A DNA stretch of 64,000 bases, from the NCBI GenBank assembly GCA_036257895.1, contig DATAES010000151.1:6373-70372 (forward strand), in the 5' to 3' direction. How positions within the stretch are numbered: the stretch's first letter is position 1; the number at the start of each line of letters is the position of its first letter. The DNA is from Acidimicrobiales bacterium (GTDB lineage Bacteria > Actinomycetota > Acidimicrobiia > Acidimicrobiales > JACDCH01). Positions 1,697 to 31,027 of the stretch are shown here, piece by piece. The notes under the pieces were generated by a model. It saw only the letters and a list, made by a program, of their open reading frames with translations. It was not told the DNA's origin and searched no databases. Both the position numbers and the translations under genes were made by a program.

Positions 1697-2962
1697 CTAT
1701 GCCTCCACCCGGCGGAGCGACTCCGCCTCCGCCCACGAGAACACGCCTTTGGCCATCAGCGAGGGCTCCGCGCTTCGCCGACGGGCGAACACCTCGGCCC
1801 GAGCCCGGTGGACCGCGGCCGAGTCCGGCGCGGCGAGCGCCGCGTACTCGGCGAGGTGGCCCGCCAGGCGCAGGTCGGCGTCGTCGTCGGACGCGGCGAG
1901 CTCGACGGCTCGCCGGGCGAGGACGTCGGCGCCGCCGGCGAGGCCGGCCAGCTCCGATGCGACGGCCTCGTCCCGCGCAGGCTTCAGATGGGCGGGGTTG
2001 CCGTCGTACCAGCCGCCGTACAAGCGCCACAGGTTGCGCACGATGAACTCCGGATCGTCGTAGATCGGACGAAGGTAGGGCTTCTCGAGCAGGTCCGGGG
2101 GCGCGGCCACCGTGTGGATGATGTCGTCGAGGCGGGCACCCTCGTTCATGAGCGCCAGCGTCTGGGTCGTGAGCGAGTCCAGGAGGGTCGCGGTGTCGAG
2201 GAGAACGGTGCGGACCCGATCCGAGCCTGCGATGGGCAGGCCGTGGCCCGGCAGCAACAACTCGGGCGCCGGATCGAGCGTGGCCATCTCCCGCAGCGCG
2301 GCGGCCCATTCTTCGGCGTACCGCTGCACCTTCTGGGGATTCCCGGCGTTGGGTGTGCACCAGATGATCAGGTCGCCGGTGCACAGCGTCCGGCGGTCGG
2401 GCACCCAGACCCAGGTGTGATCGTCCGTCTCGCCGCGGGCGTGGTGCAGTTCGGCGCCGACGCCGCCGAGGTCGAGGTCGAGCCGGTCGCTGTAGGTCAC
2501 GTCCGGTCGCCGGTACTCGAGCGGCCACTGCAACCCGGGCGCTCGGAACTGCCGCTGGTTGATCACGGCGTTGTAGCCCGCGGTCTTCACGTACCGGTCG
2601 AAGCGCGGATCGACGGCCTCATGACCGATGACCCGCATCGGCCCCTCGGCCTCGAAGGCTGCGGTCCCGAAGACGTGGTCGATGTGGCCGTGGGTGTAGA
2701 CGGCGGTGGTCGCCCGTTCGGTCGACCACGACCGGATCGCCTCGTGGACTGCACCCGCCACGAGGGCGCTGCCGGTGTCCACCAGGCAGAGGCCGTCGGG
2801 GGTGGAGAACGCGGTGACGTTGGCGAACGACTCGACGAAGGCCACACCGTCGCCGACCTCCTCGAGCGTGTTCGAGGGCCGGAAAGGGTGGTGATCGGTG
2901 ATCTCCTCGGTGCCATCGAGGATGCGAGCCGACAGTTCGAGCAGGGACTTGGACGCAGTCAC
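1697..2962 (-). CDS. MBL-fold metallo-hydrolase, alkyl/aryl-sulfatase-like (no SCP2 C-terminal domain)
   Basis: 421 aa. Metallo-beta-lactamase motif YTHGHIDHVFG and an SdsA1-type region (NAGNPQKVQRYAEEWAAALREM, LRPIYDDPEFIVRNLWRLYGGWYDGNPAHL). Confidence 0.8.
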   Translation of the reverse strand: MTASKSLLELSARILDGTEEITDHHPFRPSNTLEEVGDGVAFVESFANVTAFSTPDGLCLVDTGSALVAGAVHEAIRSWSTERATTAVYTHGHIDHVFGTAAFEAEGPMRVIGHEAVDPRFDRYVKTAGYNAVINQRQFRAPGLQWPLEYRRPDVTYSDRLDLDLGGVGAELHHARGETDDHTWVWVPDRRTLCTGDLIIWCTPNAGNPQKVQRYAEEWAAALREMATLDPAPELLLPGHGLPIAGSDRVRTVLLDTATLLDSLTTQTLALMNEGARLDDIIHTVAAPPDLLEKPYLRPIYDDPEFIVRNLWRLYGGWYDGNPAHLKPARDEAVASELAGLAGGADVLARRAVELAASDDDADLRLAGHLAEYAALAAPDSAAVHRARAEVFARRRSAEPSLMAKGVFSWAEAESLRRVEA

Positions 2963-2986
2963 CGAACGACCCTAGGTCCACGCACG

Positions 2987-3169
2987 CGACGGAGCGCCAG
3001 CGGAGGAGCGGCCCTACGGCCTGCGTGGCCGGGGAACGCCGACAGCACGACGGAGCGCCAGCGGGGGAGCGGCCCTACGGCCTGCGTGGCCAGGGAACGC
3101 AGACAACGCGACGAAGCGTCAGCGGAGGAGCGGGCCCAAGGGCCTGCGTGGCCGGGAACGCGGAGAACA
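2987..3169. repeat. Tandem repeat, 3 x 61 bp, in the divergent sulfatase/TetR intergenic region
   Basis: Units start at 2987, 3048 and 3109: cgacggagcgccagcggaggagcggccctacggcctgcgtggccggggaacgccgacagca. Copies 1 and 2 differ at a few positions; copy 3 is more diverged and has one deletion. Confidence 0.9.
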
Positions 3170-3187
3170 CAGCCTACGATTACTGCG

Positions 3188-3769
3188 ATGACGGCGATCG
3201 ACGGGCGGACGGCCCGTGCGGTGCGGACCCGCGAAGCCATCGTCGATGCGTCGATCGCATTGGTGGACGAGGGTGATGTTCGTCCGACTGCACTGAAAGT
3301 GGCCGAGCGTGCCGGGGTTTCGGTGCGTTCCGTGTTCCAGCACTTCGACGATCTCGAGGGTCTGTACGCCGCGATCGCCAATCGGCTCGTGGACCGGCTC
3401 GGCGGCGTGAAGGTCGTGGTCGACGCATCGCTGCCGCTGCCGGACCGGATCAACGAGATGGTGCGAAGTCGTTCGCGCCTCCTCGAGGTGCTGACTCCCA
3501 TCCGGCGAGCCGCAGCGGTGCATGCGCCGTTCTCCGCTGAGGTGCGGGCGCGGCTCCAAGCAGGCCACAACATGCTCCGCGCCGAGCTCGAGCGGGTGTT
3601 CGCCGACGAACTCGCCGAACGAGAGGAGCCCGCGCGGACGAGATTGCTCGACTCGCTCGACACGGTGCTGTCGTGGCCGAGCTGGGAGAACCTCCGCACG
3701 CTCAACGGCCGGACTCAGGAGGAAGCCCAGGCCGTGTTCGCGCACATGGTCGGCGCCCTGCTGCTGTAG
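3188..3769 (+). CDS. TetR/AcrR family transcriptional regulator
   Basis: Distal part of spurious ORF 1079..3769, with an in-frame ATG at 3188. HTH TALKVAERAGVSVRSVFQHFDDLEGL. Confidence 0.9.
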   Translation: MTAIDGRTARAVRTREAIVDASIALVDEGDVRPTALKVAERAGVSVRSVFQHFDDLEGLYAAIANRLVDRLGGVKVVVDASLPLPDRINEMVRSRSRLLEVLTPIRRAAAVHAPFSAEVRARLQAGHNMLRAELERVFADELAEREEPARTRLLDSLDTVLSWPSWENLRTLNGRTQEEAQAVFAHMVGALLL

Positions 3770-6136: not shown

Positions 6137-6965
6137 CCGCCGGCGGATCGAGGATCAGTTCGTCAGGGAGGTCGAACGGCTCCGGTTGGCTGCCGTCGAT
6201 GTCGGTGACGCCATAGTCGCGGGCGAGCTCGCCCACCCGGTAGCCGCCGCCGGAACGTCGGCTGACAGCAGGATCGGTGGCCAAGGCGGCGATGCATCGG
6301 CCGGTGTACTCGGGGGACTCGAGTCCCGTGGCGCCCGCCATTTGTACCCGCTCGGTCGTCGTGAACCCCGGGAACACGGCGACGACGCTCACGCCGTGCG
6401 GTCGCAACTCGTGTGCGAGCGTCGCGGTCGCCCGCACGATGGCCGCCTTGGCGGTGTCGTACATGAGTGCGCCGAGGTAGCGACCGCGATCCCAAGCCGC
6501 GATGTTGACGATGAGTCCGCTGTCCTTGTCGAGGAGCAGTGGGATCGCCGCGTGTGACGTGGCCAGGGTCGGCTGCAGGCCGGCCACGAACATGCCGTTC
6601 CATTTCAACTGGAAGTCCTGCTCCCAGAACGGTGCCGAGAAACCTGCGTGGTCGTACGCCTCGTAGCCGCCCCAGGCGTTGTTGACGAGGACGTCGAGGT
6701 GGCCGTTGCAATCGTCTCCGACGCGTTGCATCAGCGCTGTGATGTCGTCGTAGTTCGTGTGGTCACAACGGACTGCGACGCCGCGGCCACCGCGCTCGGT
6801 CACGAGGCTCGCCGTCTCCTCGACGCTGCCCGGTGCGTTGTCCGCCGGCTTCGTGTCGCCCACTGTCCGTCCGGTGACGTACACCGTGGCGCCGATGTCA
6901 CCGAGCGACAGCGCGATGCCGCGACCGATGCCACGGCTGGCGCCGGTCACGATCGCGATCCTCAT
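6129..6965 (-). CDS. SDR family oxidoreductase
   Basis: Real part of ORF 6129..7847, starting MRIAIVTGASRGIGRG. Has NNAW and YDTAK. The ATG at 6965 overlaps the upstream ACAD stop (ATGA). Confidence 0.9.
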   Translation of the reverse strand: MRIAIVTGASRGIGRGIALSLGDIGATVYVTGRTVGDTKPADNAPGSVEETASLVTERGGRGVAVRCDHTNYDDITALMQRVGDDCNGHLDVLVNNAWGGYEAYDHAGFSAPFWEQDFQLKWNGMFVAGLQPTLATSHAAIPLLLDKDSGLIVNIAAWDRGRYLGALMYDTAKAAIVRATATLAHELRPHGVSVVAVFPGFTTTERVQMAGATGLESPEYTGRCIAALATDPAVSRRSGGGYRVGELARDYGVTDIDGSQPEPFDLPDELILDPPAVT

Positions 6966-8059
6966 TGCTTCGGGAGTCCGAGGATGCGCTCGCCGATGAT
7001 GTTCTTCTGCACTTGCGTCGTCCCTCCCGCGATGCGACCGCCGGGCGCGCCCAGGGCGCCGAGCGACGCGTCGTTGACCAACATGGCGTGGGCGCCGCCG
7101 ATCGACGCTCGCAGCATCGCTGCATCGAACAACAACTCGGTCACGCCGAGCTTCATCAACGAGCCGGCGACCGACGCGACCGGACCTTGCCGCTGCGCGA
7201 GCGCGAGATAGGAACGCCCGCGCGAGACAAGGAGCGCGAGTTGGTCGCGCCGAACGGAATCGAGGTCGTCGGCGCCCATCGACGCCATCGCGTCGAGCCG
7301 GCGTTGCAGCGAGATGGCCGAGGCGCCGATGTGGCCACGCTCGTTCGTCAACGTCGCCATTCCGACGTTCCAACCCTCGTTCTCGGCGCCGAGCAGGCAC
7401 GACGCAGGCACCCGCACCCCGTCGAGGAACACCTCGTCGAACTCCGATGCGCCGGTCATCTGCCGCAGGGGCCGCACGTCGACGCCGGGTGAATGCATGT
7501 CGACGAGGAAGAACGAGATGCCGCGATGCAGTTTGGCTGTGTGGTCGGTGCGGGCCATGCAGATGCCCCAGTCGCTGATGCGACCGTTCGAGCACCACAC
7601 CTTCTGCCCGGTCAGGAGGTACTCGTCGCCGTCCCGGTCGGCTCGAGTGGCCAGCGACGCGAGATCCGAACCCGCGCCGGGCTCGCTGAACAACTGACAC
7701 CAGACCCGTTCGCCGGTGATGATCGGTCGCAGGTGCTCGCGCTTCTGGTGCTCGGTGCCGAACAGCAGCAGGGAGCCACCGGCGAGAACGACACCGACCA
7801 TGTTGATGAAGGGCGGGACGCCAACGATCGCGCACTGCTCGATCCACGCGGCAGTGTGCTCAGCTGTGAGGCCTCGTCCGCCGCACTCCTCGGGCCAGTG
7901 GATCCCGGCGTATCCCGCGTCGAACAACCGCCGCTGCCACGCGGTCCCTTCGTCTCGCAGATCGGGCGGGAGGATGGCGCCGTAGTCCCGGGGCGCGTGC
8001 GGCTTGTTCGCGGCCAACCACGCTGCCGCCTCGTCCCGGAAGGCCTCCACGTCGATCAT
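6962..8059 (-). CDS. Acyl-CoA dehydrogenase
   Basis: 365 aa. WCQLFSEPGAGSDLASL, and C-terminal GGTTQVQKNIIGERILGLPK. Confidence 0.9.
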   Translation of the reverse strand: MIDVEAFRDEAAAWLAANKPHAPRDYGAILPPDLRDEGTAWQRRLFDAGYAGIHWPEECGGRGLTAEHTAAWIEQCAIVGVPPFINMVGVVLAGGSLLLFGTEHQKREHLRPIITGERVWCQLFSEPGAGSDLASLATRADRDGDEYLLTGQKVWCSNGRISDWGICMARTDHTAKLHRGISFFLVDMHSPGVDVRPLRQMTGASEFDEVFLDGVRVPASCLLGAENEGWNVGMATLTNERGHIGASAISLQRRLDAMASMGADDLDSVRRDQLALLVSRGRSYLALAQRQGPVASVAGSLMKLGVTELLFDAAMLRASIGGAHAMLVNDASLGALGAPGGRIAGGTTQVQKNIIGERILGLPKQ

Positions 8060-23432: not shown

Positions 23433-24092
23433 TCAGAACAGGCGCAGCGTGTCGGACTCGATGCCGCGCAACTCGTCGTAGTCGACTTCGACCCACGTGA
23501 TGCCGCGGCTCTCCGCGAGCACGCGCGCCTGCGGCTTCACGACCTGTGCGACGAAGATGCCGCGCACAGGACGCAGCATCGGATCGAGATTCATCCGCTC
23601 GATGTAGCGGGCGAGCTGCTCGACGCCGTCGATCTCGCCTCGTCGCTTCACTTCGATCGCGACCGCGCCACCGTCGCCATCTCGGCAGAGCAGGTCGACA
23701 GGACCGATGTCCGTCGGATGCTCGCGACGGACGAGCCGCAGGCCGGTGGCGATCGCGGTGCAGTTCGCGGCGAGCAGTTCCTGCAGGTGCGCTTCGACGC
23801 CGTCCTTCTGCAGACCGGGGTCGGTGCCGAGTTCGTAGCTGACGTCCGACAGGATCTCCTCGATCGTGATGGTGAGGGTCTCACCCTTGGTGTTGGTGAC
23901 CGTCCATCCGCTTGGTTCCTCGACCAGCCGGTTGGGCGCGACCATCCAGTTGAGGGGCTTGTACGCACCGCCGTCAGAGTGAATCGACAGGCAGCCATCG
24001 GCCTTGATCATCAACAGCCTTGTCGCCATGGGAAGGTGAGCCGTGAGTCGCCCGTCGTAGTCGACGGCGCAACGCGCGATCACGAGGCGCAC
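23433..24092 (-). CDS. nucS: Endonuclease NucS (EndoMS), non-canonical mismatch repair
   Basis: 219 aa with full-length NucS similarity ([16 protein letters not shown]..., ..[28 protein letters not shown]). Confidence 0.95.
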
Positions 24093-24143
24093 CGGCCGAG
24101 ACTACGGGACTTCCTGCCTGCCCACGGATGTGCGGGATGGTTG

Positions 24144-24190
24144 ACGCCCGGGCGTTTCACTACCCAGCCGGTAGTCAGACGCCCGGGCGT
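24144..24190. repeat. Twin-palindrome element (family D copy 1): ACGCCCGGGCGT-N23-ACGCCCGGGCGT
   Basis: Two identical perfect 12-bp palindromes at 24144 and 24179, 35 bp apart. The same arrangement recurs at 52036/52071. Confidence 0.85.
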
Positions 24191-24232
24191 CCTGCAACAC
24201 GTGCGCTCGCGATAGGGGCAGACTCTGGCCCA

Positions 24233-26737
24233 ATGGTGGACGCCACCAGGGCCGGCACCTTCGACCAGGCTGTGCATTCCACGCCGACCTTGCGCGTACG
24301 CGACGTCCACAAGCGCTTCGGACGGCTCGAAGTGCTCCGTGGCATCGATCTCCAGGTGTCTCGCGGCGAGATCCTCTCCCTGGTCGGGGAGAACGGCACG
24401 GGCAAGTCGACGATCGTGCATAGCATCGCCGGAACGTGGCTGCCGGATGGGGGCACGGTCGAGCTCGACGGTCGGCCGCTCTGCGCCTCCGACCCGCGGG
24501 TAGCCGTGGTGTGGCAAGACCTTGCGCTGTGCGACAACTTGAGCGTCGTCGCCAACTTGTTCCTCGGCGACGAGCGCCGCGACAGCTACCTCCTCGATGA
24601 GCGACAGATGATCGCGGAGGCCGTGGACCTCTTCGACGCGTTGCATCTCACGCCCGGCGATCTGGAACGGCCCATCGGCGAACTGTCTGGCGGGCAGCGC
24701 CAGCTCGTCGCCATCGCGCGCGCGGTGCGACGACGGCCGGAGGTTCTCGCGCTCGACGAGCCGACAGCGTCGCTCGGCGTGAACGAGACCGCGGTGGTCG
24801 AGCAGCTGTTGGCCGAGCTTCGTTCCCAGGGGACCGCCATCCTGCTGGTGTCGCACAGGCTCGATCAGGTCTTCGAGCTGGCCGACCACATCGCCGTGTT
24901 GCGCGACGGGCGCATCCTCGCCGTGGCCTCGCCGCGCGACGTCCATCCCGACGACGTGGTGGCGATGATGTCGGGCACCGAGGCGGTGTCGTCGGCCCGC
25001 CGCCAGCTCCGCCGGTTGCACAGCCTCGTCGAGCAACTCGCCGACGTCGAGCCTGCGGCCAGCCTGCCGCTCATCGTGTCGGCGATGGCCGAGGCCGTCG
25101 ATGTCGAGCAGCTGTGCGTGCACCTGCTGGACGAGTCGGGTGGCGAACCCCGGCTTCGGTGCTCGGCCACCGTGGGCCTCGATCTCGACGGTGTCGACGG
25201 GCTCGACCGACTCCGGCTCGGGGCGTTGGGCGGACCGCCCGGCGCTGCCGCGGCGGCTGCGTCCACGGTGATCGTCGAGGACACCCGCACCGACCCGTTG
25301 TGGTCGCACTGGCGGGGGCGCACGTTGGCGCAGGTCCGCAGCTGCTGGTCGATTCCCATCGTCGGCGCGGCCGGGGTGCTCGGCACCATCTCCGCGTTCG
25401 ACGACAATCCGGGTAGCCCGCAGCCCGACCAGCTCGAACTCGTAACGCTCTACGCGAGCCATGCTGCGGCGGCGATCGAGCGAGAGCGGCTCCTCGCTGA
25501 CGCGACGCGCCGCAATCGAATGCTCGAGACGCTCCGCGGCGTCCTCGACAAGCTGGCAGGGCCCCACCCCGCAGAGGGCGCGCTCGGCGTCGCGCTCGTT
25601 GCACTGTGTCGCGGCCTGGGAGCCGATGCCATCGCGCTGCATCCTGCGGGTGGCGAGAGCCTCGAGCTCGTGACCGCTGAGCTCGTGGACGGATCGGCGG
25701 CTGCGGCCGCCGATCGTCAGCGTGCCGCGGCGGCTTGTGTGCTGCGCAGCTACGACGACGTCGATCGTGCCCGGCCGGTCGGACCCGACGTCGTCGCCGT
25801 CCCGATCGCAACCCCAGATGGTCGGGCCGTTCTGACCGCATGGTGGGGCGACGCCGATCGGTTGTCGAGCGACGCACTCGATCTGTTCGACGACGCAGCG
25901 CGATCGTTGTCACTCGCTCTCGAACGCGAGGCGCTCGAGCGGGCGAACGCGGAAGCGGCTGCGCTGCGGAGGTCGCATCGACTGCAACGCGATTTCCTCC
26001 ACCGCCTCAACCACGAGCTGCGGACTCCTTTGACGGCGATCCAGGGATACGCCTCCACCCTGCGTCAGACCGATGTGAGCTGGGACAGCTCCGCGCAGGA
26101 GCGGTTCCTCGACTCGATCGCGGCGGAGTCGGCGCGGATGGGCCGGCTGGTCGGCGACCTCCTCGACTTCAGCGCGATCGACTCCGGCACGCTCAGGCTC
26201 GTGCGTGACTGGTGCAATCTCGAGCTCGTCCTCGAAGCGGCCCGCCGCTGCGTGGGAGACGGCACGTCTCCGGTCATCGAGCTCGCCCACGCTGCCGAGC
26301 TACCCGCGGTGTGGGCCGACCACGATCGGCTCGAGCAGGTCTTCGTCAACTTGCTCGACAACGCCGTGCGTCACGCGTCCGGTGTCACCCGGATCAACGT
26401 TCGCTCCTCGGTCGACCTCGACGCGGGCTCCGTCACCGTGCGCGTCGCCGACGACGGACGTGGCATCCCGGCTTCGCTGGTCGATCGTGTCTTCCTCCCT
26501 CGTGAGCGGGGCACGACCGACGATGCCGGCGCAGGTCTCGGTCTCGCCATCGCCCGCGGCATCGTGGTCGCACACGGCGGCACCATCTGCATCGACCGTC
26601 GCCGCCCCGGGACCACCGTCGTGGTCACGGTGCCGATCGATCCCTCCCCGCTCGACTCCAGCGGCGACGTCGTCGATCTCATCAACGCTGTCGCCGATCC
26701 CGTCTCGGTCGACCACGCCACCGACATGGTCGAATGA
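24233..26737 (+). CDS. Hybrid sensor histidine kinase: ABC ATPase (NBD) - GAF - GAF - HisKA - HATPase_c; no TM segment
   Basis: NBD motifs GENGTGKST, VVWQD, LSGGQRQ, VLALDEPT and VSHR. GAF-like CWSIPIVGAAGVLGTISAF..AAAIERERLL. H-box NHELRTPLTAI. N/G1/G2 boxes NLLDNAVRHA, DDGRGIP and GAGLGLAIARG. Start set at ATG 24233, where GC3 rises; the ORF opens at 24128. Confidence 0.85.
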   Translation: MVDATRAGTFDQAVHSTPTLRVRDVHKRFGRLEVLRGIDLQVSRGEILSLVGENGTGKSTIVHSIAGTWLPDGGTVELDGRPLCASDPRVAVVWQDLALCDNLSVVANLFLGDERRDSYLLDERQMIAEAVDLFDALHLTPGDLERPIGELSGGQRQLVAIARAVRRRPEVLALDEPTASLGVNETAVVEQLLAELRSQGTAILLVSHRLDQVFELADHIAVLRDGRILAVASPRDVHPDDVVAMMSGTEAVSSARRQLRRLHSLVEQLADVEPAASLPLIVSAMAEAVDVEQLCVHLLDESGGEPRLRCSATVGLDLDGVDGLDRLRLGALGGPPGAAAAAASTVIVEDTRTDPLWSHWRGRTLAQVRSCWSIPIVGAAGVLGTISAFDDNPGSPQPDQLELVTLYASHAAAAIERERLLADATRRNRMLETLRGVLDKLAGPHPAEGALGVALVALCRGLGADAIALHPAGGESLELVTAELVDGSAAAAADRQRAAAACVLRSYDDVDRARPVGPDVVAVPIATPDGRAVLTAWWGDADRLSSDALDLFDDAARSLSLALEREALERANAEAAALRRSHRLQRDFLHRLNHELRTPLTAIQGYASTLRQTDVSWDSSAQERFLDSIAAESARMGRLVGDLLDFSAIDSGTLRLVRDWCNLELVLEAARRCVGDGTSPVIELAHAAELPAVWADHDRLEQVFVNLLDNAVRHASGVTRINVRSSVDLDAGSVTVRVADDGRGIPASLVDRVFLPRERGTTDDAGAGLGLAIARGIVVAHGGTICIDRRRPGTTVVVTVPIDPSPLDSSGDVVDLINAVADPVSVDHATDMVE

Positions 26738-27462
26738 GCGAAGACGCGACACTCGTCCTGGTCGTCGAGAACGACGCCAACATCGTCGACCTCGTCCAGG
26801 CGAACCTGCTGGCACGAGGGTTCGCGGTGATCGTGTCGCGCACAGGCGCCGACTCGGTCGAGCTCGTCGACACTCGCAGTCCGGATGTCGTGCTGCTCGA
26901 CCTCATGCTTCCGGCTGTCGACGGCTTCGACCTGTGCCGAGAGATCCGGGAGCGTTCCTCCGTGGGGATCATCGTCGTGTCAGCTCGTCGGGGCGAGCAG
27001 GACAAGGTCCGCGCACTCAATCTCGGCGCCGACGACTACCTGACCAAGCCGTTCGGGATTGACGAACTGCTCGCCCGCATCAACGCGCTCCTGCGGCGCA
27101 GCCGTCCGCCGGCGCCTCCCGAGGTGCATGCGCCAGTCTCGTTCGGCTCGGTGACGGTCGACCTCGAGGCACAGCTCGTCACCAAGGACGGCGTGGCCGT
27201 CCACTTGACGCCGACGGAGTTCGCGCTCCTGCGCGAGCTCGTGCTCGCCCCCGGCAAGCTGTTGTCGCACGCGACGCTGTTGCGCAAGGTGTGGGGCCCC
27301 GGTTACGAGACCGCGACGGAGTACACCCGCGTGTACGTGCGCAGGCTGCGGGCCAAGCTCGAGGATCCCGACGGTCCGGCTCTCATCGCCACCGAGCCGC
27401 GCGCCGGCTACCGGATGGCGCTCCCCGAGGAGCGACCCAACGAGTCGATGCCGTCACGCTGA
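26734..27462 (+). CDS. OmpR/PhoB-family response regulator, KdpE-like
   Basis: Receiver domain (VLLDLMLPAVDGF, LTKPF) plus winged helix (LTPTEFALLRELV..LLRKVWGPGYETATEYTRVYVRRLRAKLEDDP..GYRM). ATGA overlap with the kinase stop. Confidence 0.95.
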   Translation: MSEDATLVLVVENDANIVDLVQANLLARGFAVIVSRTGADSVELVDTRSPDVVLLDLMLPAVDGFDLCREIRERSSVGIIVVSARRGEQDKVRALNLGADDYLTKPFGIDELLARINALLRRSRPPAPPEVHAPVSFGSVTVDLEAQLVTKDGVAVHLTPTEFALLRELVLAPGKLLSHATLLRKVWGPGYETATEYTRVYVRRLRAKLEDPDGPALIATEPRAGYRMALPEERPNESMPSR

Positions 27463-27480
27463 GCGTGCGCGCCAGGCGGC

Positions 27481-27545
27481 GTTCGCGGTTCGTTCACGTT
27501 GAGGCAAGGATTTCTACATCTCGTTCACATCCGCGTTCCTAGCGT
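27481..27545 (+). promoter_or_regulatory. Candidate response-regulator binding sites and promoter upstream of the ABC importer genes
   Basis: GTTC(A/G/C)(C/T) hexamers at 27481, 27492, 27523 and 27535, paired at 11-12 bp. TCGTTCAC is repeated exactly at 27490 and 27521. Locally AT-richer. TAGCGT (TANNNT) at 27540. Confidence 0.3.
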
Positions 27546-27607
27546 CGCAGCCAAGAGGCACCGCGCCTTCGGTGTCGTGTCATCGGGTACCGCACAGGGG
27601 GAAGCAC

Positions 27608-28822
27608 ATGCGCGTCAGGCATCTCAGGTCGACCGTTGCCCTCGTCACGTTGGGGCTCCTGCTGCTTGCAGCGTGCAGCGACTCCAAGAGCAACACGAGC
27701 ACGAGCTCGGGCGGGAACGGGTCGAACGCGTCGAGTGGCACCATCGCGGCGTCGGACTTCGCGGCCGACTTCGCGGCGATGGCCAAGGTGAAGGATCTCG
27801 CAGCCAAGGGCAAGGGCCTCATCGGGGTCCTGTTGCCTGACACGACGACCTCGGCGCGCTACGAGTCGTTCGACCGCCCATATCTCGAGAAGGCGTTCCA
27901 GACCGCGGGGCTGTCCAAGGACCAGTACAAGATCGACAACGCTCAGGGCAGCGCGTCCACCATGCAGACGCAAGCCGAGGCCGACATCACGAACGGGGCC
28001 ACCGTGCTGTTGGTCGATGCGCTCGATTCGGGCAGCGGCGCGGCGATCGAGTCAGCCGCCGCGGCCAAGGGCGTCAGGGTCATCGACTACGACCGCCTCG
28101 TGAAGGGGGGCGACCCCGACCGGGTGTACGTCAGCTTCGACAACGTGGAGGTCGGCAAGCTCATCGGCCAGGGCTTCATCGACTGCGCCACCGACTGGAA
28201 GGTGGCGAAGCCGAACGTTCTCGTGATGGACGGCGATCCCACCGACAACAACGCCGGCCTGTTCGCGCAGGGCTACAACGGCGTGCTCCAGCCGAAGTTC
28301 GATTCCGGCGACTACGTGAAGGTCGGTGAGCCGGCAGGCACGTGGACCCCGACGGTGGCAGCCACCACGTTCGAGCAGCAGTACACGGCCAATCCCAACA
28401 TCAACTCGGCCGTGACGCCGAACGACGACAACGCGAACGCGGTGATCGCGAGCCTGCAGCGCCAGCAGATCCCGGCAAAGACGTTCCCGACGACCGGGCA
28501 GGACGCGTCGACATCCGGGCTCCAGAACATCCTGAAGGGCTACCAGTGCGGCACCGTCTACAAGCCGATCTACCTCGAGGCCCAGGCCGCGGCCGCAGTC
28601 GCCATCTACATGCGGGCCGGTGAGGATCCGCCGTCGGCGCTGGTCAACGGCACGACGAAGGACACGCAGGCGAACACCGACGTGCCGTCGGTGCTGCTGA
28701 AGCCGACGTGGGTCACGGTCGACAACATGTCGGCCACCGTCGTCAAGGACGGTGCCGTGACGGTCGCGGCGCTCTGTGTCACTGCCGTGGCCACGCAGTG
28801 CTCTGCGGCGGGGATCAAGTAG
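27608..28822 (+). CDS. Sugar ABC transporter substrate-binding lipoprotein (XylF/RbsB-like, CUT2 type)
   Basis: ATG 27608 lies after GGGGGA. Lipobox LLLLAAC. Periplasmic-binding core IGVLLPDTTTSARYESFDRPYLEKAF...VRVIDYDRL. Confidence 0.9.
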   Translation: MRVRHLRSTVALVTLGLLLLAACSDSKSNTSTSSGGNGSNASSGTIAASDFAADFAAMAKVKDLAAKGKGLIGVLLPDTTTSARYESFDRPYLEKAFQTAGLSKDQYKIDNAQGSASTMQTQAEADITNGATVLLVDALDSGSGAAIESAAAAKGVRVIDYDRLVKGGDPDRVYVSFDNVEVGKLIGQGFIDCATDWKVAKPNVLVMDGDPTDNNAGLFAQGYNGVLQPKFDSGDYVKVGEPAGTWTPTVAATTFEQQYTANPNINSAVTPNDDNANAVIASLQRQQIPAKTFPTTGQDASTSGLQNILKGYQCGTVYKPIYLEAQAAAAVAIYMRAGEDPPSALVNGTTKDTQANTDVPSVLLKPTWVTVDNMSATVVKDGAVTVAALCVTAVATQCSAAGIK

Positions 28823-28835
28823 TCGACGCTGGGGG

Positions 28836-28870
28836 GACGCGGTGGACGAGGGCTTCTCGTGCACCGCGTC
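28836..28870 (+). other. Intercistronic stem-loop between the binding-protein and ATPase genes
   Basis: GACGCGGTG-G-ACGAG ggctt CTCGT-G-CACCGCGTC: 9+5 bp stem with one G-G mismatch and a 5-nt loop, 14 nt after the SBP stop. Confidence 0.5.
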
Positions 28871-28932
28871 CGCCGGCGAACCACAATGCAGCTGTGCCAG
28901 TTGGTCGGTGAGGCCCGGGGAGGAACCAGGTC

Positions 28933-29748
28933 GTGAACCCGGACGCCACTGTGCAAAGCGAACCCGAACGAACGTCGTCGAGCGCCAGCCCGTTGCTCCG
29001 TCTCGAGGGCATCGGGAAGAGCTTCGGCAACGTGCACGCGCTCGTCGACATCGACCTCGACATCCTCTCGGGCGAGGTCATGGCGTTGACCGGCGACAAC
29101 GGCGCCGGCAAGTCCGTGCTCATCAAGTGCATCGCCGGCATTCACAGCCCTGACACCGGCAGAATCCTCTGGGAGGGGACGCCGGCTCACCTCCGGTCCC
29201 CCCGGGACTCGTCGGCGCTGGGCATCGAGACCGTCCACCAGGACCTCGCGCTCTGCGACAACCTCGACATCGTCCAGAACATGTTCCTCGGTCGCGAGAA
29301 GGTGCGGCACCACGCCCTGGACGAGGAGGACATGGAGCGCGCCGCGGGCCAGACCCTCGGCGGGCTCGCGGTCACGACAGTGCGTTCGGTGCGTCAGCTT
29401 GTCGCATCGCTCTCGGGCGGCCAGCGTCAATCGGTCGCCATCGCGAAAGCGGTCCTCTGGAACTCGAAGCTGGTGATCATGGACGAGCCCACCGCCGCGC
29501 TCGGCGTCGCGCAGACGCGGATGGTCCTCGATCTCGTGCGCCGGCTTGCCGACCGAGGGCTCGCAGTTCTGATCGTGTCGCACAACATGAACGACGTGTT
29601 CCAGGTGGCCGACCGCATCACGGTGCTCCGTCTCGGGCGCCTCGTCGCGGTGCGGCCTCGGGCGGAGATGGATCCCCAGATCGCGGTCGACCTCATGACC
29701 ACCGGCGTGTCGACCCGAACGGTGAAGATGGCCGATGACCGCGGTTGA
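28933..29748 (+). CDS. Sugar ABC transporter ATP-binding protein, single NBD (half the size of canonical CUT2 ATPases)
   Basis: 271 aa. GDNGAGKSV, VHQDLALCDNL, LSGGQRQSVAIAKAV, IMDEPTAALGV and VSHNM. GTG start after GGAGG. Confidence 0.9.
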   Translation: MNPDATVQSEPERTSSSASPLLRLEGIGKSFGNVHALVDIDLDILSGEVMALTGDNGAGKSVLIKCIAGIHSPDTGRILWEGTPAHLRSPRDSSALGIETVHQDLALCDNLDIVQNMFLGREKVRHHALDEEDMERAAGQTLGGLAVTTVRSVRQLVASLSGGQRQSVAIAKAVLWNSKLVIMDEPTAALGVAQTRMVLDLVRRLADRGLAVLIVSHNMNDVFQVADRITVLRLGRLVAVRPRAEMDPQIAVDLMTTGVSTRTVKMADDRG

Positions 29749-31027
29749 CGAGCCCGAACCGGCCGCGGTCGACCACGAACTGGTCGAGGCGGCCGTCGCG
29801 GAGACCGAAGTCACCGAGCCGCCCGAGGCCGTCGCCGAGACCCTCCGCGACTACACGCGGGTGGTGTACGTCCGCATCAAGTCGGGCGACAGCGGCGTGC
29901 TCCCGGTGGTCGGCGGGCTGCTCCTCATTTCGATCCTGTTCCAGTGGCTGAACCCGAACTTCCTGACAGCCGGGAACATCGTCAACCTGCTGATCCAGGG
30001 CGCGCCGTACATGCTGCTGGCAATGGGTGAGATCTTCGCGCTGTTGCTCGGCGAGATCGATCTGTCGATCGGCTTCGTCAGCGGCATCGGCGGTGTCGTC
30101 ACCGCGGAGTTGGTGAAAGAGTCGACCGGCTGGCCCTGGTGGGCGGCGATCCTGGCGGGTCTAGTCGTCTGCGCGCTGATTGGCCTGCTGCAGGGAACGA
30201 TCATCACTCGCTTCGGCCTCCCGTCGTTCGTCGTGACACTGGCCGGTCTGCTCGGGTGGCAAGGCGTGATGTTGCTGATACTCGGTCAAGGCGGCTCGCA
30301 GCCGATCAACGACGACGTCATCAACAACATCACGAGCGGCAACCTCACACCCGCGGGCAGTTGGCTAGCGATGATCGCGATCGTCGCCGCGTTCGGCGCG
30401 CGCACGTGGTTCCGCGAGGCGCGCCGGCGCGCGTCAGGTCTCGTGGCTCCGCCCGCGGTCGTGACGGTGATCAAGATCGCGGCTTCGGCGGTCGCGGGCA
30501 TCATCCTCGTGATCATCTGCAACACCGATCGCGGGCGGCTCGTGCCGATCCAGGGCGTGCCGTGGGTCGTGTTGCTCGTGCTGGCGGTGCTGACCGCGTG
30601 GACGTTCCTGCTCGGTCGCACGCGCTTCGGTCGTTACGTGTATGCCATCGGCGGCAACGCAGAAGCAGCACGCCGCGCCGGTATCAACCTCTCTCGCATC
30701 CGCACGATGTGCTTCATGCTGTCGTCCTTCACAGCCGGCATCGCGGGCATCGTCACTGCGTCACGGTTGCGCTCGGTGTCCACGTCGCTCGAGGGCGGAA
30801 CGCTCGTGCTCTACGCCGTCGCCGCGGCCGTGATCGGGGGCACGAGCCTGTTCGGCGGGCGGGGCAAGGCGATCCACGCCGTGCTCGGCGGCCTCGTGAT
30901 CGCGGCGATCGACAACGGCATGGGCCTCCAGGGCTACAGCGCGGCGGCGAAGTACGTGGTGACCGCGCTCGTTTTGCTGGCTGCGGTCACGATCGACGCC
31001 GTGGCCCGGCGCAACGCCGCGCGCTGA
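29735..31027 (+). CDS. Sugar ABC transporter permease (XylH/RbsC-like)
   Basis: 430 aa, multi-TM. NIVNLLIQGAPYMLLAMGEIFALLLGEIDLSIG, and C-terminal GGTSLFGGRG. Overlaps the ATPase gene by 14 nt. Confidence 0.9.
   Translation: MTAVDEPEPAAVDHELVEAAVAETEVTEPPEAVAETLRDYTRVVYVRIKSGDSGVLPVVGGLLLISILFQWLNPNFLTAGNIVNLLIQGAPYMLLAMGEIFALLLGEIDLSIGFVSGIGGVVTAELVKESTGWPWWAAILAGLVVCALIGLLQGTIITRFGLPSFVVTLAGLLGWQGVMLLILGQGGSQPINDDVINNITSGNLTPAGSWLAMIAIVAAFGARTWFREARRRASGLVAPPAVVTVIKIAASAVAGIILVIICNTDRGRLVPIQGVPWVVLLVLAVLTAWTFLLGRTRFGRYVYAIGGNAEAARRAGINLSRIRTMCFMLSSFTAGIAGIVTASRLRSVSTSLEGGTLVLYAVAAAVIGGTSLFGGRGKAIHAVLGGLVIAAIDNGMGLQGYSAAAKYVVTALVLLAAVTIDAVARRNAAR

Follow-up and report, generated by a model that had tools for sequence, protein, structure and literature searches.

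A soluble histidine kinase carrying a CUT2-type ATPase domain suggests a novel form of transporter-coupled two-component signalling in uncultured Actinomycetota

Introduction

The relay from a transporter to a signalling protein is known in detail for very few systems, and in BceS-BceAB, PhoR-PhoU-PstB and DcuS-DctA it uses weak membrane contacts that are hard to trap. Here we analyse a block of five genes in a 64,000-nucleotide stretch of DNA (contig DATAES010000151.1; hereafter the window) from a metagenome-assembled genome (MAG) of an Acidimicrobiales bacterium. A histidine kinase bearing at its N-terminus the nucleotide-binding domain (NBD) of an ATP-binding cassette (ABC) transporter, and its response regulator, precede the genes of a CUT2-type sugar importer. 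Our literature searches found no published description of an ABC-NBD/histidine-kinase fusion. Comparative analysis suggests that the module is a novel form of transporter-coupled two-component signalling, widespread in uncultured Actinomycetota. In the reading that we favour, to which we give a probability of about 0.5, the kinase dimer would dock on the permease dimer where the ATPase otherwise sits, and NBD closure driven by the sugar and its substrate-binding protein (SBP) would lead to regulator phosphorylation and switch the importer genes on.

In the BceRS-BceAB systems of Firmicutes, the kinase has no sensing domain, and an ABC transporter does the sensing for it (PMC4513084, PMC10314905). 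As in those systems, the two-component genes studied here adjoin the transporter that they would induce, a resemblance in regulatory logic only. BceS sits in the membrane and touches the BceB permease with its transmembrane (TM) helices, whereas the present kinase is soluble and its proposed point of contact is the fused NBD; BceAB is an FtsX-type, exporter-like transporter acting on antimicrobial peptides, whereas the locus encodes an SBP-dependent CUT2 sugar importer. The FtsX permease with a large extracellular domain and the two-TM kinase that characterize Bce-type modules are both absent, the permease having a BPD_transp_2 domain and the kinase no TM segment. Finally, the Bce mechanism has been demonstrated, whereas the one proposed here is drawn from sequence.

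The domains appended to several importer ATPases, namely the TOBE domain of MalK with its partners MalT and EIIAGlc, the C2 domain of MetN and the TOBE domain of ModC, couple the binding of a ligand or partner to the opening and closing of the NBDs. The kinase resembles these proteins in that its NBD is followed by C-terminal, dimerising regulatory domains. It differs in what is appended, a GAF-GAF-histidine kinase assembly, while the domains of MalK, MetN and ModC regulate transport or, for MalK and MalT, sequester a transcription factor. In the PstSCAB-PhoU-PhoR system, the state of an SBP-dependent ABC importer reaches a kinase via the NBD protein PstB. There the contact is non-covalent, through PhoU and the PAS domain of the membrane-anchored PhoR, whereas here the NBD lies within the kinase polypeptide; common to the two systems are 11-bp tandem direct repeats in place of a -35 element, as at Pst/PhoB promoters.

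Covalent links between uptake and signalling have also been described. Amt-kinase fusions join a transport component to a histidine kinase. The SLC5-STAC kinases CbrA, CrbS and RpuS are fusions of a transporter domain and a kinase (PMC9100948, PMC8871633), and S-component/5TMR kinases likewise link a transport component covalently to a kinase (PMC11109136). The present kinase shares with all of these a covalent link that would couple nutrient uptake to signalling. Unlike them, in which the fused part is a membrane translocation domain of secondary or energy-coupling factor (ECF) type, it carries the soluble ABC motor, and the permease is separate.

Two three-component systems sense extracellular monosaccharides through an SBP, XylFII-LytS-YesN, which controls xylFGH, and ChvE-VirA. 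Like them, the locus combines an SBP of the XylF/ChvE type, a two-component system and a CUT2 importer as the proposed target of induction; unlike their kinases, which are membrane proteins and bind the SBP directly in the periplasm, the present kinase has no TM segment. The importer resembles the FrcABC-type single-NBD CUT2 importers of loci L014, L049 and L023 (Streptomyces, Nonomuraea and Labrys), whose ATPases have ~260-280 residues, an LSGGQRQ signature, the segment QDLALCDNL and an L-G-V D-loop; those ordinary ATPases, however, stand alone, without signalling domains or an adjacent NBD-kinase.

Results

The five-gene module

The window has a GC content of ~68%. Open reading frame (ORF) and Pfam analysis bore out the original prediction of five co-directional genes on the + strand, with their coordinates and both overlaps:

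24233..26737, + strand: soluble histidine kinase, 834 residues (ORF, Pfam, AlphaFold2)
26734..27462, + strand: OmpR/PhoB-family response regulator, 242 residues (Pfam Response_reg and Trans_reg_C)
27463-27607: gap of 145 bp between the regulator and SBP genes
27608..28822, + strand: lipoprotein SBP, XylF/ChvE-like, 404 residues (Pfam Peripla_BP_4; lipobox LLAAC)
28933..29748, + strand: single-NBD CUT2-type ATPase, 271 residues (one ABC_tran domain; canonical LSGGQRQ)
29735..31027, + strand: CUT2 permease, GguB/XylH-like, 430 residues (Pfam BPD_transp_2)

The kinase start at 24233 agrees with the NCBI protein P0001, which is 100% identical to the kinase; a second open ATG lies upstream, at 24128. 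The regulator start and the kinase stop overlap in an ATGA, which points to translational coupling, and the permease start overlaps the ATPase gene by 14 nt.

The importer belongs to CUT2 (TC 3.A.1.2), as indicated by its Peripla_BP_4 SBP, its CUT2-type ATPase and its BPD_transp_2 permease with a cytoplasmic coupling (EAA-type) loop, FGRYVYAIGGNAEAARRAGINLSRIR, which begins at about nt 30614. This loop, of the GGNxxAA type, is kept in every permease of the family, including those of the ATPase-less clade described below. The top NCBIfam matches were XylF/ChvE for the SBP, GguB/RbsC for the permease and YtfR/RbsA/XylG for the ATPase. The scores do not make the proteins XylFGH D-xylose equivalogs, all three lying under the cut-offs: 170 bits against 390 for xylF, 176 against 724 for xylG, and 220 against 450 for the best permease match, GguB. 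The closest relatives of the SBP in the PDB are E. coli XylF (3M9W, 1e-38) and then ChvE (3URM). The ATPase aligns with the N-terminal half of tandem ATPases only and is not the canonical CUT2 tandem protein of ~500 residues, with two fused NBDs and a degenerate second site.

Anatomy of the fused kinase

Pfam recognizes four domains in the kinase: ABC_tran (residues 35-179), GAF (278-416), HisKA (585-652) and HATPase_c (696-803). An AlphaFold2 (AF2) model, computed from a 93-sequence alignment and reaching a mean predicted local distance difference test score (pLDDT) of 85, completes the picture, with the core divided into dimerisation/histidine phosphotransfer (DHp) and catalytic (CA) domains:

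24290..24973, + strand: ABC NBD, residues 20-247 (AF2, Pfam, motifs)
Residues 254-269: linker helix, short and of lower confidence (AF2; pLDDT 58-70 over residues 250-270)
25052..25423, + strand: GAF domain 1, residues 274-397 (Pfam GAF_2/GAF; AF2)
Residues 398-442: long helix (AF2)
25580..25867, + strand: second, GAF-like domain, residues 450-545 (AF2; no Pfam match)
Residues 546-610: continuous helix into DHp, carrying H594 (AF2)
Residues 659-805: CA domain (AF2)
25958..26647, + strand: kinase core, DHp and CA (Pfam HisKA, HATPase_c)

Judged by its motifs, the NBD is complete and apparently ATP-competent. It has a Walker A GENGTGKST, a Q-loop W94-Q95, an LSGGQRQ signature, a Walker B LALDE with E176 and an H-loop H208. 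Across the 93 aligned homologues G52, N54, G55, G57, K58 and T60, W94-Q95, S152, G154, R156 and Q157, and D175-E176 do not vary, and at least 90% of the sequences have H208. A motif census of 223 clusters of homologues (see below) gave the same result, the commonest listed variants, which cover ~90% or more of the clusters, retaining the NBD motifs. At the other end of the protein, the phospho-acceptor H594 lies within HELRTPL, and an E/DxxT phosphatase motif is present; H594, T598 and the residues of the N and G boxes are likewise invariant in the homologue alignment. GAF domain 1 is a possible site of cytoplasmic ligand input. Fold searches matched the N-terminus to ordinary transporter NBDs (MlaF, LptB and ArtP, TM-score ~0.8), and bacteriophytochrome PAS-GAF-PHY-histidine kinase structures came out on top for the GAF/kinase spine when the whole model was used.

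Pfam, hydropathy and the AF2 model revealed no periplasmic sensor domain in the kinase, nor did we find a TM segment: the highest 19-residue hydropathy value is 1.8, in a part of the GAF-like domain that is charged and rich in Ala. With its HisKA and HATPase_c domains and the Response_reg and Trans_reg_C domains of its regulator, the pair is a classical HisKA two-component system with an OmpR/PhoB-type regulator. The terms 'Kdp-like' for the kinase core and 'KdpE-like' for the regulator, used in the original prediction, proved too specific. KdpD matches the core only, with 119 bits against a cut-off of 1123, indicating general HisKA similarity, and KdpD_N, Usp and TM helices are absent by Pfam and hydropathy, so that the kinase is not a KdpD. 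The best NCBIfam matches of the regulator are MtrA, KdpE and PhoB, all under their cut-offs; KdpE reaches 187 bits against 325 and MtrA scores higher, which indicates general OmpR/PhoB similarity only. The predicted absence of kdp genes from the vicinity agrees with the ORF and flank annotation of the window.

A widespread family of fused kinases

Two protein searches yielded 240 clusters, 223 of which reach at least 760 residues and have the same architecture as the window kinase, at 52-95% identity. An exhaustive search with the family-specific GAF-GAF region, at a clustering level of 50%, returned 67 clusters with E <= 1e-30: some 20 full-length matches begin at residue 245-270, implying an NBD-sized domain in front, and the others are fragments or unrelated giant multi-GAF proteins. 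The named taxa are Acidimicrobiales, Solirubrobacterales, Nocardioidaceae and Streptosporangiaceae, and all the sources are MAGs. The fused kinases fall outside the curated families of NCBIfam and appear in databases as 'XylG' or 'ATP-binding cassette domain-containing protein'.

Could the fusion be an artefact, either a mis-assembled or mis-called junction of an ATPase and a kinase or a decaying pseudogene? Some database entries do lack the NBD (P0091, 665 residues) and some loci contain frameshifts. The continuous ORF, however, is common to the 223 clusters of at least 760 residues, the motifs are invariant across the family, and AF2 is confident in the domains on both sides of the junction, though less so in the linker at residues 250-270. 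As for P0091, it had been considered as an NBD-less homologue and was rejected: its locus, from a long-read assembly, does hold the NBD, broken into three frameshifted pieces, and the permease is broken too. These results effectively refute the artefact explanation. Long-read frameshifts disrupting the gene for the kinase NBD, ATPase or permease were seen in L003 (9545-10001 and 14983-16279), L164 (12650-13600) and L005 (~12910), and such frameshifts in long-read MAGs give rise to database proteins that are falsely 'NBD-less' or truncated.

A conserved operator in front of the importer genes

The gap between the regulator and SBP genes contains the following elements:

27481..27528, + strand: predicted operator of the regulator, four direct half-sites (conserved pattern)
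Half-sites: GTTCGC at 27481, GTTCAC at 27492, TTCTAC at 27512 and GTTCAC at 27523
27540..27545, + strand: -10-like hexamer TAGCGT, 11 nt after the last half-site

The direct repeats already noticed in the gap, TCGTTCAC at 27490 and 27521, correspond to half-sites 2 and 4. From start to start the half-sites are spaced by 11, 20 and 11 nt in the window and by 11, 20-21 and 11 nt across loci. Over 23 loci the operator score averages 21.5 out of 24, against a mean of 15.9 and a maximum of 19 in shuffled controls. Scores of at least 21 were obtained in 17 loci, always in the gap between regulator and transporter genes, and at no other site on either strand of 421 kb; L170 is an eighteenth locus with the operator. 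In L087 the operator precedes a tandem ATPase gene. Within the window, the site at 27481-27528 is the sole match with at most one mismatch.

Activators of the PhoB/OmpR design bind 11-bp repeat units that end ~10 bp before the -10 element and replace the -35. The half-sites and TAGCGT show this layout and are predicted to form a PhoB-type, activator-dependent promoter. No good -35 element was found near TAGCGT, a generic sigma-70 scan gave no promoter at 27540-27545, and a TAnnnT hexamer occurs at a similar offset (~9-14 nt) in many other loci. An operator upstream of the kinase gene, as autoregulation would entail, was looked for and none was found. The proposal that the regulator controls the importer promoter thus gains in silico support from a conserved, locus-specific operator of PhoB style in the gap, and we consider it very probable that the importer operon is under the control of this regulator.

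Synteny with CUT2 importers

Twenty-nine informative loci, one of them that of the window, were brought together from genomes, metagenomes and look-ups of exact proteins; scans of sequence collections gave at least ~20 full-length loci among the matches listed. The conservation of the gene order in related genomes, proposed at the outset as a check, was borne out: CUT2 genes adjoin the kinase-regulator pair in all 24 loci with enough flanking sequence, and in each of the five truncated contigs an SBP gene follows the regulator before the contig ends. Four architectures were found:

Kinase-regulator-SBP-single-NBD ATPase-permease (canonical): 18 loci
SBP-ATPase-permease-kinase-regulator: one locus, L167, in which the permease stop overlaps the kinase start
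Kinase-regulator-tandem-NBD ATPase-RbsC-like permease-RbsB-like SBP: one locus, L087
Kinase-regulator-SBP-permease, without an ATPase gene: four loci, L005, L168, L169 and L171

The adjacency to CUT2 genes, which extends over MAGs of Acidimicrobiales, Solirubrobacterales, Nocardioidaceae and Streptosporangiaceae, therefore persists where gene order or transporter subtype differs, and since the flanking genes vary between loci, the module is self-contained. Regulators are 63-83% identical across loci.

Two neighbourhoods deserve mention. In L087 a gene for a GAF-GGDEF diguanylate cyclase (15-1283) lies immediately upstream of the fused kinase. In L164, an Acidimicrobiales locus, genes for a GH43 glycoside hydrolase and a ROK-family protein (6349-7281 and 2543-3436) stand just upstream of the module; these neighbours, seen in no other locus, are a weak hint of pentose (xylose or arabinose) substrates.

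A proposed coupling of permease and kinase

An extracellular signal could reach a kinase that lacks a TM segment only if the permease relayed it across the membrane. In the scheme we propose, the two NBDs of a kinase dimer would sit on the coupling loops of the permease dimer, displacing the ordinary ATPase dimer, and this sensing complex would exist beside the transport complexes. Docking of the sugar-loaded SBP on the outside of the permease would promote ATP-dependent closure of the NBDs, as in ordinary importer ATPases. The linker helix and the helical spine of the two GAF domains would then transmit this tweezers-like movement to the DHp and CA domains, where it would shift the balance between kinase and phosphatase, and the phosphorylated regulator would bind the four GTTCAC half-sites and activate the SBP-ATPase-permease operon. 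The GAF domains may contribute a cytoplasmic input. In the original prediction this arrangement was described as flux sensing, a term that says more than the data can, as sequence cannot separate the sensing of flux from that of occupancy or conformation.

The topology of the kinase argues for docking by analogy. In MalK, MetN and ModC the NBD is N-terminal and C-terminal regulatory domains hang below the NBDs, and the kinase, with the NBD first and its dimerising domains C-terminal, matches this order.

The same topology and the docking-type motifs retained in the NBD would also suit a brake, by analogy with MetN and ModC: the NBD-kinase would compete with the ATPase for the permease and throttle uptake when an internal ligand of the GAF domains (the sugar) is abundant, its kinase output being secondary. 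The conservation of the GAF domains fits this idea as well. We nevertheless hold it to be improbable. The kinase core, the phospho-acceptor His, the coupled regulator and the operator are all strongly conserved, which means that the transcriptional output is clearly under selection, and the operons without an ATPase gene offer no competitor.

Origin of the kinase NBD

A distance tree computed for 321 NBDs groups the 17 cognate ATPases in a single clade, separate from that of the kinase NBDs. The best NCBIfam matches of the kinase NBD are the N-terminal halves of CUT2 ATPases (YtfR, XylG, AraG and RbsA). Its identity to the window ATPase is 41%; it averages 44% with cognate ATPases, lies at 41-44% with single-NBD CUT2 ATPases from loci without the histidine kinase (Streptomyces, Nonomuraea and Labrys) and has a median of 33% with generic CUT2 ATPase NBDs, mostly tandem N-terminal halves. 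The single-NBD members, kinase NBD included, have Q-D-L-A-L-C-D-N-L after the Q-loop, a canonical LSGGQRQ and an L-G-V D-loop, while the generic N-terminal halves have a degenerate LSxAQQQ signature. These identities and shared motifs place the kinase NBD, as a recruit, within the single-NBD CUT2 ATPase subfamily. That it might be the missing half of a split tandem ATPase was considered and rejected, as it resembles N-terminal halves and single NBDs and not the degenerate C-terminal halves.

Outside the catalytic motifs, no stretch of the kinase NBD is more invariant among the 93 homologues than the segment after the Q-loop. By analogy, we equate this segment with the part of MalK that can be cross-linked to EAA loops, and its invariance is what continued docking would predict.

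Operons without an ATPase gene

A clade of 55 clusters, 78-95% identical to the kinase of L005, lacks the ATPase gene in all four loci examined, the short-read assembly L171 included. The genes of these loci overlap or stand 6 nt apart. All 55 clusters retain a Walker A GGNGAGKST, the Q-loop Gln, LSRGQRQ and a DEPT Walker B, and 54 of them the H-loop His. A Walker A defect in L005, GKLT, was put down to a read error because the 55 clade members all have GKST. The coupling loop of the ATPase-less permease, FGRDVHAIGSNAEAARRAG, is near-identical to FGRYVYAIGGNAEAARRAG of the window. An operon that keeps its SBP and a loop-bearing permease while its sole NBD is on the kinase is the strongest available argument for docking, and in this clade the kinase NBD may be the only one that serves the permease.

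The clade also bears on a variant in which docking involves one kinase NBD and one ATPase subunit, so that every such transporter would carry a kinase. This heterodimer formed part of the original prediction, as an alternative to docking by the kinase NBD alone. The ATPase is a single NBD in need of dimerisation in 19 of the 24 loci, and the two NBDs agree in their D-loop and have canonical Walker A and signature motifs that are compatible with each other. The heterodimer, however, does not apply to the ATPase-less clade or to the tandem-NBD locus L087, whereas replacement of the ATPase fits all four architectures. Kinase-free single-NBD CUT2 ATPases occur in L014, L049 and L023, so that such a partner is unnecessary. 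Moreover, histidine kinases are obligate homodimers, and in a mixed pair the second NBD of the kinase dimer would have no partner, or else the dimer would span two transporters. The heterodimer is in our opinion a poor candidate.

A bolder version of docking, which we regard as doubtful, is that the kinase NBDs act as the importer motor in the ATPase-less clade, and perhaps in a sub-population of complexes everywhere. One polypeptide would then energize uptake and autophosphorylate, each SBP-triggered ATP cycle being read mechanically. If true, the kinase would be a molecular flux meter for an ABC importer, and a cytoplasmic kinase without a membrane segment of its own would sense an extracellular ligand.

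Other features of the ATPase-less loci were recorded. A gene of the major facilitator superfamily (MFS; Sugar_tr/TRI12-type) lies directly 3' of the permease gene in L168 (13746-15347), L171 (8781-10463) and L005 (13636-15141), and the ATPase-less variant may have this transporter as its true output or as a partner. Tandem repeats occur upstream of the kinase gene, four copies of GGGGCCTGAACCACC in L169 (7745-7815) and three of a CCAGGAGTCACGGGCAG-like unit in L171 (~2830-2880); they are not conserved between loci.

Discussion

Points that weigh against docking

Several observations speak against the docked kinase. In all the ATPase-less loci, ~6 kb upstream, there is another complete CUT2 system (SBP-permease-single-NBD ATPase; 1-2937 in L168, 1-2704 in L169 and ~1600-2834 in L005), whose single-NBD ATPase could in principle serve both permeases, and the GTTCAC operator was looked for in these loci and none was found. 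Sequence divergence has been quicker in the kinase NBD, with a mean identity of 53%, than in the cognate ATPase, with 65%. Translation of L007 and L013 shows alterations at the H-loop, L007 being without the His and L013 with it; read errors are possible in both. In L087 the permease that accompanies the kinase is RbsC-like, and the ATPase of this permease differs in its Q-loop segment. As the motifs shared by NBDs were inherited within the subfamily, they are no proof of co-adaptation; residues common to the kinase NBD and its cognate ATPase had been considered as such a sign, and this was dropped because single-NBD ATPases from loci without the kinase have them too. A PDB sequence search with the permease gave no CUT2 permease structure.

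Co-evolution was assessed by correlating pairwise distances (mirror-tree) over 16 complete loci, a comparison of low power. Two blocks emerged, one made of the NBD, middle and core of the kinase with the regulator (r = 0.83-0.92), the other of SBP, ATPase and permease (r = 0.82-0.87). The NBD itself co-varies with the other parts of the kinase and with the regulator at r = 0.83-0.91. Between the blocks, the permease correlates about equally with the NBD (0.65) and with the kinase core (0.64), which, within the low power of 16 loci, indicates no extra co-evolution.

This result, the faster evolution of the NBD and the pairing in L087 with another CUT2 subtype and a tandem ATPase would all fit the main rival, a stand-alone cytoplasmic sensor. 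Here the NBD would stay off the permease, its ATP-dependent dimerisation serving as a readout of energy charge or as a clamp, and the GAF domains would bind an internal sugar or metabolite; the importer would still be regulated. Tandem GAF-histidine kinase spines are typical of cytoplasmic ligand sensors, and the operator implies regulation without any need for docking. Such a sensor would nonetheless leave two things unexplained, namely why its input is of the single-NBD CUT2 type with an invariant segment at the groove after the Q-loop, and why some operons consist of an SBP, a permease with an intact loop and a kinase that holds the only NBD. We judge the stand-alone sensor unlikely, if less so than the brake or the heterodimer.

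Docking of the kinase NBD on the permease, as originally proposed, is thus supported indirectly. The intact motifs and coupling loop of the ATPase-less clade, and the common subfamily of kinase NBD and ATPase, favour it; the expected excess of co-evolution did not appear.

Other features of the window

Between the SBP and ATPase genes, which are 110 nt apart, is the following element:

28827..28878, + strand: stable intercistronic RNA hairpin (minimum free energy -44.4 kcal/mol, z = -3.4 against shuffles)

It looks like an intercistronic stabiliser or a partial terminator that would yield surplus binding protein. The genes that flank the module encode NucS, a VOC/glyoxalase-like protein, an enoyl-CoA hydratase, a MaoC-type hydratase and an SDR protein. 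Upstream of the kinase gene and divergent from it, nucS (NucS_N and NucS_C domains) occupies 23433-24092 on the - strand, a neighbourhood not kept in other loci. The intergenic region between them contains, at 24143-24191, a 22-nt inverted repeat, 91% complementary and with a 5-nt loop, that includes two exact copies of the palindromic 13-mer GACGCCCGGGCGT, 35 nt apart. Two roles are conceivable for this repeat: a REP-like element, or an operator through which a further regulator acts on the divergent promoters of nucS and the kinase gene.

Significance

The family is widespread in soil and freshwater Actinomycetota, and its naming as 'XylG' or 'ATP-binding cassette' protein leaves the regulatory role invisible in annotations. 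In these bacteria, evolution appears to have hard-wired the link between transporter and kinase by placing the motor domain on the kinase. The fused motor domain makes the link visible in the sequence and directly testable, and the family offers natural controls in its operons with a separate ATPase, without an ATPase, with a tandem ATPase or with another gene order. If the favoured reading is true, a soluble kinase can sense an extracellular sugar, and SBP, permease and NBD-kinase would provide a modular design for synthetic sensors.

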